Shown: positions 5,696 to 44,609 of the stretch, piece by piece | Layout of the letters: each line of letters starts with the position of its first letter | Numbering within the stretch: the first letter of the stretch is position 1 | Source of the DNA: a virus | Taxonomy: Duplodnaviria > Heunggongvirae > Uroviricota > Caudoviricetes | Direction: 5' to 3' (one strand) | Virus record (IMG/VR): IMGVR_UViG_3300045988_011059 | Location: 1 to 44,609 of that record | Length of the DNA stretch: 44,609 bases | Notes under the pieces: model-generated | What the model was told of the DNA's origin: nothing | Seen by the model: the letters and a program-made list of their open reading frames with translations, nothing else | The model's database searches: none | Program-made: the position numbers and the translations under genes

Positions 5696-6739
5696 ATGAG
5701 CTTACTTACATCCCTAATAAGCCACCAGATATGGCTACAACGAGCCGCTTCCGGTGAAGTGAAAGACCTCACACCATTCATTCAGGAGATGCGAGACGAA
5801 ATCAAACGGCAGGTTCTGCTATTCGGTGACGACGGTCGCAGCACTGCGCGACTGAATAAACTGTTACGCGACCTCGAAGAAGCACTGGCAGGACTTACCG
5901 GTGACTGGCAAACAAAACTGACAGAAGACCTTAAGGAACTGGTGGCATATGAGGCTGAGTGGAACGTAAAGACGCTGACGGCTAACGTTAACGCGGAATT
6001 TGTTACGCCTACCGCAGAACAGGTGTGGGCCGCTGCCGAGTTTCAGCCATTATCGTTAAGTGACAAGCCTGTTGATTTCACGAAGCTGATGTCTGGCTGG
6101 GGTGAAACGGAGGTCGCGCGCCTGGTAACTGGCGTTAAGATGGGTTTCGTACAAGGCCAAACCACACGGCAGATTGTTAAAAATGTCGTAGGCGCTGGTG
6201 GACTGGCGGACATTTCAGAACGAAACGCTGCGACGGTAATCCGCACCGCTCTGTCTCACGTATCCAACGAAGCACGTAACGAGACGTACCGCCAGAACGA
6301 CGACATCATCGAGAAGTACGAGTGGGTGTCGACGCTGGACAGCCGTACCAGTACGATTTGCAGGGCCAGAGACGGGATGACGTGGGAAATCGGTAAAGGG
6401 CCGATGCCACCCGCCCATCCGAACTGCCGGTCGTGCACGGCTCCGGTAATCAGTTCCGAGTTCGACTTCCTTGATAAAGGTGCAAAACGCGCGGCTAAGG
6501 GTGCGGATGGCGGTACTCAGGTAAGCGCAGACACCACTTACTACGAGTTCCTGAAACAACAACCCGCATGGTTTCAGGACCAGGCGCTCGGCCCGGTGCG
6601 AGGTAAGATTTTCCGCAACAGCGGTATATCGCCGGAAGAGTTTCGCGTAATATCTGTAGATGGTTTCGGGAATCCGCTCACGCTTAAGCAGATGGCGGAA
6701 CTCGATAAACGTGTTGCTGATTATCTGAAAGGGGATTAA
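5696..6739 (+). CDS. Head morphogenesis / minor capsid protein
   Basis: About 350-aa ORF after the portal; start could be ATG 5663 or 5696; call mostly positional. Confidence 0.6.
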   Translation: MSLLTSLISHQIWLQRAASGEVKDLTPFIQEMRDEIKRQVLLFGDDGRSTARLNKLLRDLEEALAGLTGDWQTKLTEDLKELVAYEAEWNVKTLTANVNAEFVTPTAEQVWAAAEFQPLSLSDKPVDFTKLMSGWGETEVARLVTGVKMGFVQGQTTRQIVKNVVGAGGLADISERNAATVIRTALSHVSNEARNETYRQNDDIIEKYEWVSTLDSRTSTICRARDGMTWEIGKGPMPPAHPNCRSCTAPVISSEFDFLDKGAKRAAKGADGGTQVSADTTYYEFLKQQPAWFQDQALGPVRGKIFRNSGISPEEFRVISVDGFGNPLTLKQMAELDKRVADYLKGD

Positions 6740-7200
6740 TGATGGGCTTTTTCAAAGTAACTGATGTACCGTCGCGTCGCGTAGTTCAGTACGCCCGAGT
6801 GTCTGGTTCTGGTGAGAACGTGGTATTTATCGAAGATGAAAGTGTACTTGGTACACCAGTAGACGACATGCCGTTTGCAGATAAAACCGGTATTGCGCTG
6901 CCGGCGGCGGGTATGCTTTATGAAATTCCGTATCTGGCTGATGCTGGCGACGTGTATTTCTCGGTGCAACCGAAAGACACAGAACTGGCAGACGGCAGCG
7001 CAACTATCACGGTCGAAGTTAAGGCTGGTAAAGCGCCGTATGCTCTGACCTGGTACAAAGATGGTAAGGAAGTTGTAAACGCACCCGAAGAGGCTTTGTC
7101 TCTTACGGTTAACGCGGCAGGCGAATACTTCGTTAAAGTTACCGATGCCGATGGTGTAGAGGCCGTCAGTAAAGCGGCGAAGGTCACTAAGCCTGAATAA
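6739..7200 (+). CDS. Ig-like domain protein (capsid-associated?)
   Basis: C-terminal segment YALTWYKDGKEV...GEYFVKVTDADG is typical of a bacterial Ig-like beta-sandwich. Confidence 0.55.
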   Translation: MMGFFKVTDVPSRRVVQYARVSGSGENVVFIEDESVLGTPVDDMPFADKTGIALPAAGMLYEIPYLADAGDVYFSVQPKDTELADGSATITVEVKAGKAPYALTWYKDGKEVVNAPEEALSLTVNAAGEYFVKVTDADGVEAVSKAAKVTKPE

Positions 7201-7203
7201 ACT

Positions 7204-7225
7204 AAGGCCCCGAAAGGGGCTTTTT
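7204..7225 (+). terminator. Rho-independent terminator
   Basis: AAGGCCCCGAAAGGGGCTTTTT hairpin plus T-run. Confidence 0.7.
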
Positions 7226-7254
7226 AGCGCCTGTTATTATTCCAGTTATTCCTC

Positions 7255-7305
7255 CTAATTGTAAATGTTGGAATAAACTATTCGAATAGTTGACTTTTCA
7301 CTAAA
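7255..7305 (+). promoter_or_regulatory. Putative regulated promoter: ATGTTGGAATAA box, palindrome ACTATTCGAATAGT, then TTGACT
   Basis: Read directly; ATGTTGGAATAA recurs at 8045-8056 upstream of the scaffold gene. Confidence 0.35.
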
Positions 7306-7542
7306 AATGTGATAAGCTCCACCTGAGCTTGTGAAGTATGAACAAGCGACCGCGGCGCGGGCAGGTAACGGAGCGGGACGTAAGTCCTGAGTGTAGTTAC
7401 GCTGACGCGTTCGGAAGGGCCATACTCTATTGCTTGTGTAAAAAGGAACGGGTTTACTGAGATTACGCCGTTTCTATGTTTAAATGATAAGGACTAGCGC
7501 CCCGCTTTATGGCGGGGCTTTACTTATCGAGAAAGGAGAAAC

Positions 7543-7929
7543 ATGAATCTTAAAGCAACTGTCGTAGCAGGGGCATGTTTCATCATCCTGTTATATGCCC
7601 ACGGCTACTATCAATACCGCATCGGCTGGAACGAAGGCCGGGCGAATCTCGTTTCGCAGCAACAGCAGAAAGCACAGGCTGCGTTAGCGAAGAAAACACA
7701 ACGGCAGCAGCAGGATGAATCGAAGGCCGCAGCCGCTGACAACGAAGGCAAGACGAAATCAGAGGTGATCACCCGTGAAGTCGTTAAGTACATTAAAACG
7801 CCTGGTCGCAGCGTGTGCACTTTTGACCCTGAGCGCGTGCAGCTCAAGTCCCGCGCCGTCGCAAATGCCAATTCCATCCCCGGATACGACGATGATGCAG
7901 CCGCCGTGCAAACTGGCGGCACCAAGTAG
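7543..7929 (+). CDS. Rz-like inner-membrane spanin
   Basis: N-terminal transmembrane helix (VVAGACFIILLYA), Q/A-rich coiled-coil region, with an o-spanin embedded in the +1 frame. Confidence 0.7.
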   Translation: MNLKATVVAGACFIILLYAHGYYQYRIGWNEGRANLVSQQQQKAQAALAKKTQRQQQDESKAAAADNEGKTKSEVITREVVKYIKTPGRSVCTFDPERVQLKSRAVANANSIPGYDDDAAAVQTGGTK

Positions 7930-8038
7930 CGACGCGGACGAGGATTTAGCTATCGACGTTCAGAACGCTGAATGTGTACGGCAACTGAGACTGAAAGTGT
8001 TCATGTTGCAGGACTACGTGAGGAATATTCTGGAATAG
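7775..8038 (+). CDS. Rz1-like outer-membrane lipoprotein spanin
   Basis: Signal peptide with lipobox LSAC, proline-rich mature region; starts inside the Rz gene and extends past it; GTG start with AGAGG RBS. Confidence 0.7.
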   Translation: MKSLSTLKRLVAACALLTLSACSSSPAPSQMPIPSPDTTMMQPPCKLAAPSSDADEDLAIDVQNAECVRQLRLKVFMLQDYVRNILE

Positions 8039-8120
8039 TTGCCTTGCATGTTGGAATAATTTATTCTTGACATGTAAATCCGGGTGGCCCGGATTCCAAC
8101 GTCCAGGGGACATACTGACT

Positions 8121-8822
8121 ATGAATCGTTTTTTACGTTATCCGTTCCAGGAAGAAGCTGGGGCAGAAGATAAAGCCGGTGGCGGTGACGCGCCGAAAAT
8201 GTTCACCGCCGAAGAAGTTCAGGCGCTGATTGAGAAAGAAGTCGCCGGGCTTAAGGCCAATCAGGAAGCATTGCTGGCGGAGAAGAAAGAAGCCGCTCGC
8301 AAAGCAAAAGAGGCCGAAGAAGAACGGCAGCGCGCACACCAGGAGGCGTTAAAAGCCGCAGGTAAGATGGACGAGTTCGAAAAGACGATTCGTAGCCAGT
8401 ATGACCCGGTGTTAGCCGAGAAAGATGGCCGCATCTCCAGAATGGCAGAGCGCATCCTCGGCAGCGAACGTAAAGCGGTGTTAGGCTCTTTCGCGGGTGA
8501 CTTTATTACCCCGGAAGCAGTGGACATCCTTGCGCCGTTCGTTAAGACTGAGTTCGAAGGCGATGATGTGGTTACTAAGTTTGTCGGCGCAGACGGCAAC
8601 GTAATCACGACTGACCCGGAACAGTTCCGCAAATACCTGCGCGAACACAAAGCGTTTTCGCATTTGATTAAAGCAAATGCAGCTTCCGGCGGCGGGGCTT
8701 CCGGTAGCAAAGGCGGCGGGGCCGCACCAGCGTTTAAAGACATGAGTGAAGCAGAGCGTTTAGCACTGTATAAATCGAACCCTGCCGAATTTGAACGGCA
8801 ACTTAAAGCCCTGAGGAAATAA
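8121..8822 (+). CDS. Scaffolding protein
   Basis: Highly charged, alanine-rich helical protein immediately upstream of the major capsid gene. Confidence 0.65.
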   Translation: MNRFLRYPFQEEAGAEDKAGGGDAPKMFTAEEVQALIEKEVAGLKANQEALLAEKKEAARKAKEAEEERQRAHQEALKAAGKMDEFEKTIRSQYDPVLAEKDGRISRMAERILGSERKAVLGSFAGDFITPEAVDILAPFVKTEFEGDDVVTKFVGADGNVITTDPEQFRKYLREHKAFSHLIKANAASGGGASGSKGGGAAPAFKDMSEAERLALYKSNPAEFERQLKALRK

Positions 8823-16728: not shown

Positions 16729-16756
16729 AATTATTTCCTCAGTAAGTTACAGGTGA

Positions 16757-32998: not shown

Positions 32999-33027
32999 AC
33001 TATAATAGCTAACTATTCAGGTGTCAA
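32999..33027 (-). promoter_or_regulatory. Sigma70-like promoter TTGACA-N17-TATAGT (minus strand)
   Basis: Reverse complement TTGACACCTGAATAGTTAGCTATTATAGTT; spacer carries the GAATAGT motif. Confidence 0.55.
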
Positions 33028-43204: not shown

Positions 43205-43244
43205 ATCCTCCAGTTACTGCATACTTAATACGCACCTGGAGGAT
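43205..43244 (+). promoter_or_regulatory. Hairpin sequestering the holin ribosome-binding site
   Basis: ATCCTCCAG (43205-43213) is the exact complement of CTGGAGGAT (43236-43244), which contains the GGAGGA RBS of the holin. Confidence 0.4.
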
Positions 43245-43249
43245 TCATC

Positions 43250-43558
43250 TTGGATAAATTTACTGAAACTGTGACAGGCTGGCTTCTGGCTGCCGCACTC
43301 GCTGGTGGGGTAATCGGACTACGGCAGCATAAGTCCGTTATTTCTGGCCCCATCGACGGCTTCTGCTTTATTGCAACTGGCTTCACTTGCGCCGTATTTG
43401 GCGCACCCCTCGCGGCACAATGGTTCGGCATTACTGGCGACCGTGAAATCGCCGGTCTGGGCTTCATTATCGCTATTCTCTGGATGCCTATCTATTCCCG
43501 CCTCTCTGGTATCGTTGCCGGAGAATACATCGCACGTCGAGGGGGTACAGATGAATGA
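43250..43558 (+). CDS. Holin
   Basis: 102 aa with three predicted transmembrane segments; TTG start with GGAGGA RBS; immediately upstream of the endolysin. Confidence 0.65.
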   Translation: MDKFTETVTGWLLAAALAGGVIGLRQHKSVISGPIDGFCFIATGFTCAVFGAPLAAQWFGITGDREIAGLGFIIAILWMPIYSRLSGIVAGEYIARRGGTDE

Positions 43559-43823
43559 GTTATTCTGGTTCGGCGGTATGCTGGCAATCGGGGGCACATC
43601 GCTGTTTAATGTATACCACCCAAGCGTTGACGACGGACTATTTGGCCGGGTGCTCTATATCCTGACCGCTATTGTCTGCGCTGCCGGGTGCATCCACCTG
43701 TTACAGGGCAGCATGTCCCCCACGCTGCCAGAGACATTAATCACATTAGTTGCGCTGCGTCAGATTCGTCAGGCGTGGCTATCGTACGGAGGACATAAGC
43801 GTGTCTCGAAACATTTCAGATAA
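43551..43823 (+). CDS. Holin-like / antiholin membrane protein
   Basis: ORF track frame from ATG 43551 (ATGA overlap); two hydrophobic helices. Confidence 0.55.
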   Translation: MNELFWFGGMLAIGGTSLFNVYHPSVDDGLFGRVLYILTAIVCAAGCIHLLQGSMSPTLPETLITLVALRQIRQAWLSYGGHKRVSKHFR

Positions 43824-44286
43824 TGGACTGCATTTCACCGCTGCGTTCGAGGGATTCCGCGGAACTGCGTATCGTGCTACACCAAACGAGAAGTACCTTA
43901 CTATCGGATATGGAAGCTATGGCCCTCATGTTAAGGCAGGACAGACCATCACCCCCGGACAAGGCCTCCTGTTACTGAATCGCGATATGGCTAAGGCCGT
44001 AGCTGCGGTTGACGCCGCAGCGCACCATTCCCTTACACAGGCACAGTTCGACGCAGTGTGTGACCTGGTGTATAACGCCGGTGCTGGCGTGATTGCCGCT
44101 ACCACTGGTACGGGTAAAGCGCTGCGTTCCGGGGATATTGCGACGCTGCGGGCTAAGCTGGCGCTGTTCATTAACCAGAACGGCAAACCATTACTAGGCC
44201 TGCGTCGCCGTACTGCCGGACGTCTGGCACTGTTCGACGGTAAACCGTGGCAGGAGGCTGAGGCTATTGGACGCGCGGTGAAATGA
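43801..44286 (+). CDS. Endolysin, GH24 lysozyme
   Basis: AAFEGFRGTAY catalytic Glu context and TIGYG motif as in lambda R / P22 gp19 / T4 e; GTG 43801 with GGAGGA RBS. Confidence 0.85.
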   Translation: MSRNISDNGLHFTAAFEGFRGTAYRATPNEKYLTIGYGSYGPHVKAGQTITPGQGLLLLNRDMAKAVAAVDAAAHHSLTQAQFDAVCDLVYNAGAGVIAATTGTGKALRSGDIATLRAKLALFINQNGKPLLGLRRRTAGRLALFDGKPWQEAEAIGRAVK

Positions 44287-44499: not shown

Positions 44500-44529
44500 C
44501 CCGGCCCTGACCCAGCCGGGATTTTTTTT
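44500..44529 (+). terminator. Rho-independent terminator abutting the terminal repeat
   Basis: CCCGGC-CCTGACCCA-GCCGGG hairpin followed by ATTTTTTTTA, which is the start of the 89-bp repeat. Confidence 0.7.
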
Positions 44530-44609
44530 ATCTATTTTCTGTAATGACTAGTTGACTATTACCTACGACCATATTATATCTACTCCATCGACAACGAGAA
44601 CGGAGTAGA
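44521..44609. repeat. Second copy of the 89-bp terminal repeat
   Basis: Identical to 1..89. Confidence 0.95.

Follow-up and report, generated by a model that had tools for sequence, protein, structure and literature searches.

A probable overlapped spanin gene pair among the head genes of a K1G-like phage genome, with a putative structured leader RNA upstream

The genome and its probable spanin gene pair

The window, as the whole 44,609-nt stretch of DNA that was analysed is called here, begins and ends with the same 89 bp, an exact repeat; it is therefore taken to represent one complete genome, with 44,520 unique bases, in which distances can legitimately be measured on a circular map. It is colinear with the circular genome of phage K1G, and among the 317 phage records that match the 921 bases around the gene pair described below, the closest (94-96% identity) are those of the Escherichia Kagunavirus phages EF2-1, ST20, JSSK01, K1ind1 and K1G. 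Judged by its sequence, the window is the entire genome of a K1G-like Kagunavirus of the Guernseyvirinae, a subfamily whose phages are widely isolated with a view to phage therapy of E. coli K1 and Salmonella. The sample of related loci used for comparison consists of 94 loci from GenBank phages and IMG/VR. Spanins are the proteins with which a phage disrupts the outer membrane of its host in the last step of lysis.

The first gene of the pair, the putative i-spanin gene, is an ATG-initiated ORF of 128 aa on the plus strand at 7543-7929; with the second gene it spans the 7543-8038 given in the earlier note. Its product is matched at 2e-56 by the PHROG profile phrog_2536, "Rz-like spanin", and is 91% identical (117 of 128 residues) to ORF5 of K1G, itself annotated as an Rz-like spanin, and about 66% identical to the corresponding proteins of SETP7, a listed member of the Jersey spanin family, and of related Jersey-type phages. 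The only Pfam match was to DUF2514, at 17.2 bits, under the cut-off of 26. As is expected of an i-spanin, the protein is small and has a single predicted transmembrane helix, at its N-terminus, ahead of a periplasmic domain that is mostly helical. Its single hydrophobic segment is N-terminal (residues ~4-21, Kyte-Doolittle ~2.0), and a single-sequence AlphaFold model places residues 3-63 in one long helix, with pLDDT above 70 up to about residue 50 and the C-terminal half modelled at low confidence. Of the transmembrane helix plus coiled coil attributed to this protein in the earlier note, the former thus stands, while for the latter only the long helix was found. The i-spanins of the Jersey family have been described as having a pair of helices and, between them, a linker that contains beta strands (PMC6139136). 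There is a single periplasmic cysteine, Cys92.

The second gene, encoding the putative o-spanin of 87 aa, lies at 7775-8038 on the same strand in the +1 frame and begins with GTG, the first start codon past an in-frame stop at 7766; a Shine-Dalgarno-like sequence, GAGGTGAT, is found at 7762-7769, and its GAGG is retained in relatives. The two genes share 155 nt, read in two frames, and the second runs 109 nt beyond the first (stops at 8038 and 7929), so that the GTG start, the two-frame overlap and an extension of about 110 nt, all of them proposed before, agree with what was measured. The predicted signal peptide has a basic n-region (K2, K8, R9) followed by a hydrophobic core and ends, as had also been recognised, in the lipobox LSAC, with MKSLSTLKRLVAACALLTLSA immediately preceding its cysteine, Cys22; the +2 residue is Ser rather than Asp, as expected of a lipoprotein sorted to the outer membrane. 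The mature part, 66 residues with 8 prolines, is indeed proline-rich, and its conserved C-terminal domain carries Cys45 and Cys67, both of which are conserved in relatives; together with Cys92 of the i-spanin these provide periplasmic cysteines for homotypic disulfides. Two further "Rz-like spanin" profiles, phrog_5672 (3e-30) and phrog_1267 (3e-20), match this protein, which is 93% identical (81 of 87 residues) to ORF6 of K1G; Pfam gave no match. A genome-wide scan for lipoproteins yielded no credible ORF but this one and brought out no second spanin candidate, not even beside the endolysin gene.

Since the second ORF starts with GTG, it might be asked whether only the 128-aa protein is made, the +1 ORF being an untranslated by-product; many GenBank records, too, either lack an o-spanin or have only a 47-aa C-terminal piece of it. 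Comparison of the loci makes this reading scarcely credible. An out-of-frame lipoprotein ORF is present in 94 of 94 related loci (82 found by pattern scan and the other 12 with the lipobox LNGC), and it remains open and lipobox-bearing down to 39% i-spanin identity. The signal peptides diverge between lineages (LKRLVAACALLTLSAC, LPVLVVLFACSLLSGC, LFVISLTTAC and LLAVIIGITGC are examples), with the charge, the hydrophobic core and the cysteine all retained, and the C-terminal domain DADEDL..DVQNAEC.RQLRLKVF.LQ is likewise kept down to 39% i-spanin identity. GTG and ATG alternate at the same position among relatives, with ATG in several phages and with the GAGG preceding. In the Shemara-type phages the o-spanin gene is nearly separate, overlapping by only 8 nt and encoding the same C-terminal domain. 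By these comparisons, the +1-frame ORF has the pattern of a translated and selected gene, far beyond chance.

Taken together, the PHROG matches (2e-56, 3e-30 and 3e-20), the features of the two proteins and the conservation of the second frame in 94/94 loci uphold the identification of an i-spanin/o-spanin pair, and it is very probably the two-component spanin of a K1G-like Kagunavirus, of the "Jersey" family and of overlapped architecture. That family of overlapped two-component spanins, with K1G, K1H, K1ind1-3, SETP3 and HK578 as members, was defined by Kongari et al., 2018 (PMC6139136); its genes overlap by 155 bp, and Cys45 and Cys67 of the o-spanin are constant (PMC6139136). The window pair matches it on homology to its members, on the 155-bp overlap and on Cys45/Cys67. 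The pair had been called embedded, a term reserved for the case in which the i-spanin gene contains the o-spanin gene in full (PMC6139136); with an o-spanin stop at 8038, 109 nt past the i-spanin stop at 7929, that description is wrong, and what is seen is two adjacent genes of which the o-spanin gene overlaps the i-spanin gene. Neither protein has a significant Pfam match to the lambda Rz/Rz1 families, and "Rz/Rz1" is therefore right only as a functional label. The assignment of spanin function here is based on homology and sequence features; no experiment on the Jersey spanin family was found in the literature searched.

In RefSeq K1G the corresponding two genes are annotated at this place as ORF5 and ORF6 and carry the remark "overlapping gene". 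Both the family and its location have been published already, and the finding is an ordinary one that adds no new biology; the value of the pair lies mainly in correct annotation. Many GenBank records of the subfamily omit the o-spanin gene, or start it at an internal ATG that yields a 47-aa C-terminal fragment, and one PHROG profile, of 47 positions, appears to reflect this mis-annotated start.

Position among the head genes

Two holin genes, at 43250-43558 and ~43551-43823 (phrog_2359 and phrog_2508), and an endolysin gene at ~43801-44286 (phrog_33703 and phrog_7) lie near the right end of the window on the plus strand, in the same order as in K1G. From the endolysin stop to the i-spanin start is ~7.8 kb on the circular map, on the same strand, in good agreement with the 8 kb estimated previously. 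The pair had been placed between the head morphogenesis and scaffold genes; it does lie within the head module, but what directly precedes it is a Hoc-like decoration gene (6739-7200, with its stop at 7198-7200), the Mu F-like head-morphogenesis gene being one gene further upstream. The order Mu F-like head morphogenesis, Hoc-like decoration, i-spanin, o-spanin, scaffold and major capsid is found in about 80 of the 94 loci, and the same order is seen in Jerseyvirus, in Cornellvirus (Shemara) and in a Serratia phage, while in the Dhillonvirus KarlBarth a homologous pair directly follows the minor capsid gene. Other Kagunavirus papers list the spanins as ORF7/8 or gp11/12, with the holins and endolysin near the genome end. 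The location of the spanin genes among the head genes is thus a conserved feature of the whole subfamily, and their separation from the other lysis genes is already in print.

Unrelated reverse-strand genes have been inserted immediately to the left of the spanin block in several relatives: a methyltransferase gene in S100, a phosphatase-like gene in Shemara and hypothetical genes in VSt10 and ST521_2H4. A known insertion spot of this kind, and a block that appears to have its own promoter and a flanking terminator as morons have, are what would be expected if the pair were not a spanin at all and formed some other envelope system carried as a moron, such as a superinfection-exclusion lipoprotein (Cor/Llp-like) with a membrane partner. 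That is very improbable. The pair is present in every relative examined, not sporadically; the genome has no other spanin candidate; and a membrane-helix protein with an overlapping lipoprotein and conserved periplasmic cysteines is the signature of a spanin. Moreover, a homologous pair lies directly after the holin and endolysin genes in an IMG/VR contig (L084) and in Yersinia phage P400. The order in the former is holin-like gene, SAR-like lysozyme gene, i-spanin, o-spanin and a 258-aa ORF, which is taken as the terminase small subunit although no profile search stands behind that name. Occurrence of the same family after holin and endolysin genes in other phages ties it to lysis and argues against a non-lysis role, leaving the Jersey-type spanin as the strongly preferred reading.

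Putative promoter, leader RNA and flanking elements

Just upstream of the spanin block, at 7206-7225 on the plus strand, is a terminator-like hairpin (GGCCCC-GAAA-GGGGC followed by five Ts) that closes the terminase-portal-MuF-Hoc unit; the scan calls this hairpin on the minus strand, and an equivalent is present in the aligned Jersey-type relatives L003, L004, L008 and L009. It is followed by a sigma70-like promoter element, TTGACT-N17-TAAGCT, at 7290-7318 (hexamers at 7290-7295 and 7313-7318), with a predicted start near 7325. Of 91 related loci, 65 have the pattern TnGA(C/T)(T/A)-N16-18-TAnn(C/A)T upstream of the i-spanin gene; the examples shown have a 17-nt spacer, which diverges in sequence, and the stricter N17 form occurs once in the window. 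The -10 element is weak, below the threshold of a generic promoter scan. A sigma70-like promoter upstream of the spanin genes is, from the conserved pattern, plausible. The region 7255-7305 had been put forward as the pair's own promoter; the conserved promoter-like element that was found, at 7290-7318, is only partly inside that region.

Immediately 5' of the -35 element, at 7270-7283, is the palindrome GGAATAAACTATTC, conserved in Jersey- and pink-type relatives, which could be a regulator site or a -10-like element. It has a second copy at 8053-8066. The 11-mer TGTTGGAATAA occurs twice, flanking the spanin block, a count not significant by itself (19/100 shuffles). A looser search gave six matches to the palindrome in all; the third good one (10487), which overlaps a ribosome-binding site and ATG, is probably due to chance. 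Between the o-spanin stop and the scaffold gene lies a further candidate promoter, TTGCCT-N17-TATTCT, at 8039-8067, and just before the scaffold ribosome-binding site, at 8077-8095, a conserved hairpin, AATCCGGG-TGG-CCCGGATT, whose outer pairs covary (AAT/ATT, ACA/TGT). This region, 8039-8095, is conserved in Jersey, pink, Shemara and Serratia Otaku relatives. The spanin genes are thus a short block bounded by regulatory-looking sequences and running into the scaffold and capsid genes, and from this layout their transcription is probably, or at the least plausibly, separate from that of the holin genes. Literature searches for transcript maps of the subfamily yielded nothing useful.

The promoter element lies 224 nt upstream of the i-spanin ATG. 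The intervening stretch (7319-7542, plus strand, 224 nt) is a non-coding, structured leader which folds better than its shuffles (z = -3.4) and holds, in order, a local 5' hairpin (7327-7347), a rod-shaped domain (7349-7421) and a second, terminator-like hairpin. The rod (73 nt) consists of three stacked helices of 9, 8 and 6 bp capped by a GUAA loop and followed by a conserved AAGGGCC. A covariance model, R1, seeded on Kaguna-type sequences, matches each locus of the Kaguna- and Jersey-type phages once and once only (E 3e-22 to 1e-5); its matches in the "pink"-type phages are weak. In the resulting alignment, which is itself fitted to the model, 93.8% of the cells are paired and 13 of the 23 pairs have changed on both sides; none of 500 shuffles reaches these values, and slid-partner controls give 27-40%. 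Run on this alignment, RNAalifold arrives at the same rod, in which 12 of 17 pairs are compensated. The sequences of helices 2 and 3 in the Jersey-type phages are entirely different from those of the seed and still pair, and G-U pairs in helix 1 point to an RNA of the plus strand. Across the three leader types no consensus emerged from MAFFT alignment followed by RNAalifold, since the helices differ in sequence between the types. The structure of the leader is well supported and likely to be correct.

Some relatives annotate a 40-aa ORF, at 7338-7460 in the window, as a hypothetical gene. As a coding sequence it was rejected: in natural variants, indels of 1 nt leave only 9-17 aa of it. Also rejected was a long-range stem, AGUAUG/CAUACU, that closes the rod in the single-sequence fold; variants change one side of it uncompensated, and the local 5' hairpin is preferred. 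Rfam gave no gathering-score match anywhere in the window and nothing below E = 1 in 7150-8150; in four relatives its sole match was a minus-strand naRNA4 (E 0.76; 25 bits against a gathering score of 59.5), judged to be chance.

The leader's last element, detected by the terminator scan at 7499-7525 on the plus strand, is a GC-rich hairpin (stem 7499-7518; 8 bp, of which 7 are GC pairs) with an interrupted T-run, TTTACTT. The stem ends 24 nt before the i-spanin ATG and the whole element, T-run included, 17 nt before it. Compensatory changes maintain the stem (CCCTGC/GCAGGG in L026, CCCGGC/GCCGGG in the Jersey type). The TTTACTT tail, only a fair U-run, passes the terminator scan, while in the Jersey (TTAGCGT) and pink types the stem is retained with no U-run, and the hairpin, terminator-like or perhaps an attenuator, is read as at most a partial terminator. 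By manual inspection there was neither a convincing anti-terminator pairing against the 7499-7518 hairpin nor a conserved occlusion of the i-spanin ribosome-binding site.

An RNA that is structured with covariation, independent of coding sequence, and ends in a terminator-like hairpin raises the question of whether the promoter serves the spanin genes at all: the promoter, 200-nt RNA and hairpin could together be a small-RNA gene, or the leader of the scaffold-capsid-tail operon, with the spanin genes expressed by read-through only. The homologous spanin genes of Dhillonvirus, which have no such leader and overlap the upstream minor capsid gene, fit this possibility, as do terminator-like hairpins further down the plus-strand late region (9890, 13964 and 17443). 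Against it, the 17 nt between the hairpin and the spanin start leave no room for another promoter ahead of the spanin ribosome-binding site, the poor T-run of the Jersey and pink types argues against efficient termination, and the scaffold gene has a candidate promoter of its own just upstream. It is possible on this balance, though doubtful. If the promoter at 7290-7318 does serve the spanin genes, their mRNA must pass through the leader, given the same 17-nt limit.

The structured leader RNA is the only element here that may be new. A tentative suggestion is that it represents an undescribed cis-acting RNA that sets transcription or translation into the spanin genes and perhaps the scaffold and capsid genes. 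It may act as an RNase III processing site, as a site bound by a protein of the phage or the host, in put-like antitermination, in attenuation or as a separate small RNA. If functional, it would offer a small, well-conserved model of how RNA exerts control where a late transcription unit of a phage begins.

Proposed mechanism and comparison with known systems

Lipidation, complex formation and membrane fusion are proposed here by analogy with the work on lambda and T4. The block would be transcribed, after the terminator at 7206-7225, from the weak promoter at 7290-7318 through the structured leader and on into the scaffold and capsid genes. The i-spanin would be held in the inner membrane by its N-terminal helix, while the o-spanin, made from the internal GTG in the +1 frame, would be exported, lipidated on Cys22 and, with Ser at +2, sorted to the outer membrane. 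The periplasmic C-terminal parts of the two would then bind across the periplasm, with disulfides through Cys92 of the i-spanin and Cys45 and Cys67 of the o-spanin linking subunits, to give a periplasm-spanning complex that would be inert while the peptidoglycan is intact. Once the holins (43250-43823) have triggered and the endolysin (gene ending at 44286) has removed the wall, the complexes would be expected to fuse or disrupt both membranes and so complete lysis.

Spanins accumulate harmlessly until holin and endolysin act, and for this reason it is the holin alone that sets the timing of lysis. Because of this, and because spanin expression is harmless at any time after infection, the position of the spanin genes is free to vary; that they need not sit with those for holin and endolysin is already known, spanins being restrained by the cell wall and not by a timing of their own. 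The possible uncoupling of lysis-gene control from the holin suggested by the earlier note would have little mechanistic consequence, since the holins set the timing of lysis.

For the leader, the arrangement of a promoter, a structured RNA of about 200 nt and a hairpin just before lysis or late genes recalls the pR'-6S RNA-tR' region of lambda, the put RNA of HK022 and the RNase III hairpins of the T7 type, and the leader's irregular rod of ~23 bp resembles RNase III substrates. The leader has no sequence or Rfam match; the put RNA has two hairpins where the leader has one rod, and the K1G annotation includes no Q-like or other antiterminator.

Like Rz/Rz1 of lambda, the window pair consists of an inner-membrane protein with an N-terminal helix and an outer-membrane lipoprotein in the +1 frame, both with periplasmic cysteines, yet there is no detectable sequence homology between the two systems. 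Lambda Rz1 is fully embedded, with a mature form of 40 aa that is unstructured, whereas the window o-spanin extends beyond the i-spanin, its C-terminal domain being conserved and probably helical; and the lambda spanin genes are the last of the S-R-Rz cassette, whereas the window pair is 7.8 kb from the holin and endolysin genes. In that separation it is more like PseT.3/PseT.2 of T4, the genes of which are unlinked to those for the holin (t) and endolysin (e) (PMC6139136), T4 being the classic precedent for such unlinked genes. Two periplasmic cysteines are essential in the T4 o-spanin, which also has a C-terminal helix; the T4 genes differ in having a separated architecture, in belonging to another protein family and in their genomic neighbourhood. 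The IMG/VR contigs L083-L094 and Yersinia phage vB_YenS_P400 carry the same i- and o-spanin families (33-42% i-spanin identity) in the same overlapped arrangement, but there the pair follows directly after holin and endolysin instead of lying among the head genes. The closest relationship is with ORF5/ORF6 of K1G, of the Jersey family, which have the same 155-nt overlap, +1 frame, Cys45/Cys67 and position between the Hoc-like and scaffold genes; no difference of substance separates the two, and the window pair is an isolate-level variant of the K1G genes.

Annotation and relocation of the spanin family

The spanin pair, whose i-spanin (7543-7929) and GTG-started o-spanin (7775-8038) lie between a Hoc-like gene and the scaffold gene, has been only partly recorded in related phages. 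Many GenBank records, ER1 and buks among them, give no more of the o-spanin than its last 41-47 aa or so, counted from an internal ATG, or leave it out; this C-terminal fragment corresponds to window positions 7895-8038, and to 1980-2123 and 1876-2001 in the related spanin loci L003 and L006. The PHROG profile phrog_5672 appears to have been built on such truncated calls, since it is only 47 positions long and matches residues 41-87 of the o-spanin alone.

Distant homologues of the pair were found in a canonical cassette on the IMG/VR contigs L083-L094. In the cassette of L084 (699-1963), genes for a holin-like protein of 85 aa and for a lysozyme whose N-terminus is SAR-like precede those of the i-spanin and o-spanin; next comes a 258-aa ORF whose sequence we read as a putative terminase small subunit. 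From these homologues it follows that the spanin family has changed its location in the course of evolution, from the lysis cassette to the head module or the reverse.

Leader RNA and flanks of the spanin block

Upstream of the i-spanin lies a structured, conserved non-coding leader (7319-7542), including a rod domain at 7349-7421, which shows strong covariation and has no match in Rfam. In Kaguna- and Jersey-type phages each genome has a single copy of this leader RNA, and related forms of it occur in pink- and Shemara-type phages. Within the leader sits a 40-aa ORF at 7338-7460, for which the records of some relatives (SETP7, f3SE and ST521_2H4) list a hypothetical protein; this ORF is not conserved, natural variants being frameshifted to 9-17 aa.

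On the left, the junction between the Hoc-like gene's terminator and the spanin promoter block (7226-7238) is an insertion hotspot, where relatives carry reverse-strand genes, some for hypothetical proteins and others for an adenine methyltransferase or a phosphatase-like protein (L006 402-1130, L007 591-1130, L011 593-1132 and L013 375-1508). A minus-strand promoter-like site, TTTACA-18-AATAAT with TG, at 7265-7236 is directed toward the hotspot and has no gene to drive in the window. On the right, a conserved element at 8039-8095 lies shortly before the scaffold gene, which begins at 8121. It consists of a candidate promoter, TTGCCT-N17-TATTCT, and then a hairpin, AATCCGGG-TGG-CCCGGATT, in which the outer pairs show covariation from lineage to lineage; this hairpin may stabilise the scaffold/capsid mRNA at its 5' terminus.

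Holin start, genome ends and putative early promoters

A perfect 9-bp stem, ATCCTCCAG ... CTGGAGGAT, spans 43205-43244, and its 3' arm takes in the Shine-Dalgarno sequence from which the first holin gene, with a TTG start codon at 43250, would be translated; the stem may serve in translational occlusion of the holin. The window ends, 1-89 and 44521-44609, form an exact 89-bp repeat, which reflects either overlapping ends in the assembly of a circular contig or a terminal redundancy, and the unique genome length is thus 44,520 bp.

Near-consensus sigma70 promoters carrying a palindrome, GAATAGTnnnCTATTAT, in the spacer (for example TTGACAcctGAATAGTtagCTATTATAGT) were found at 16755 on the plus strand and at 33018, 35760, 35804, 39260 and 41038 on the minus strand. 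The K1G annotation includes no RNA polymerase, and the palindrome looks like an operator within host-type early promoters. This promoter family agrees with the fBC-Eco01 motif tgAATAGTa-ccTATTat-T, which has been attributed to a phage-encoded RNA polymerase (PMC9825357).
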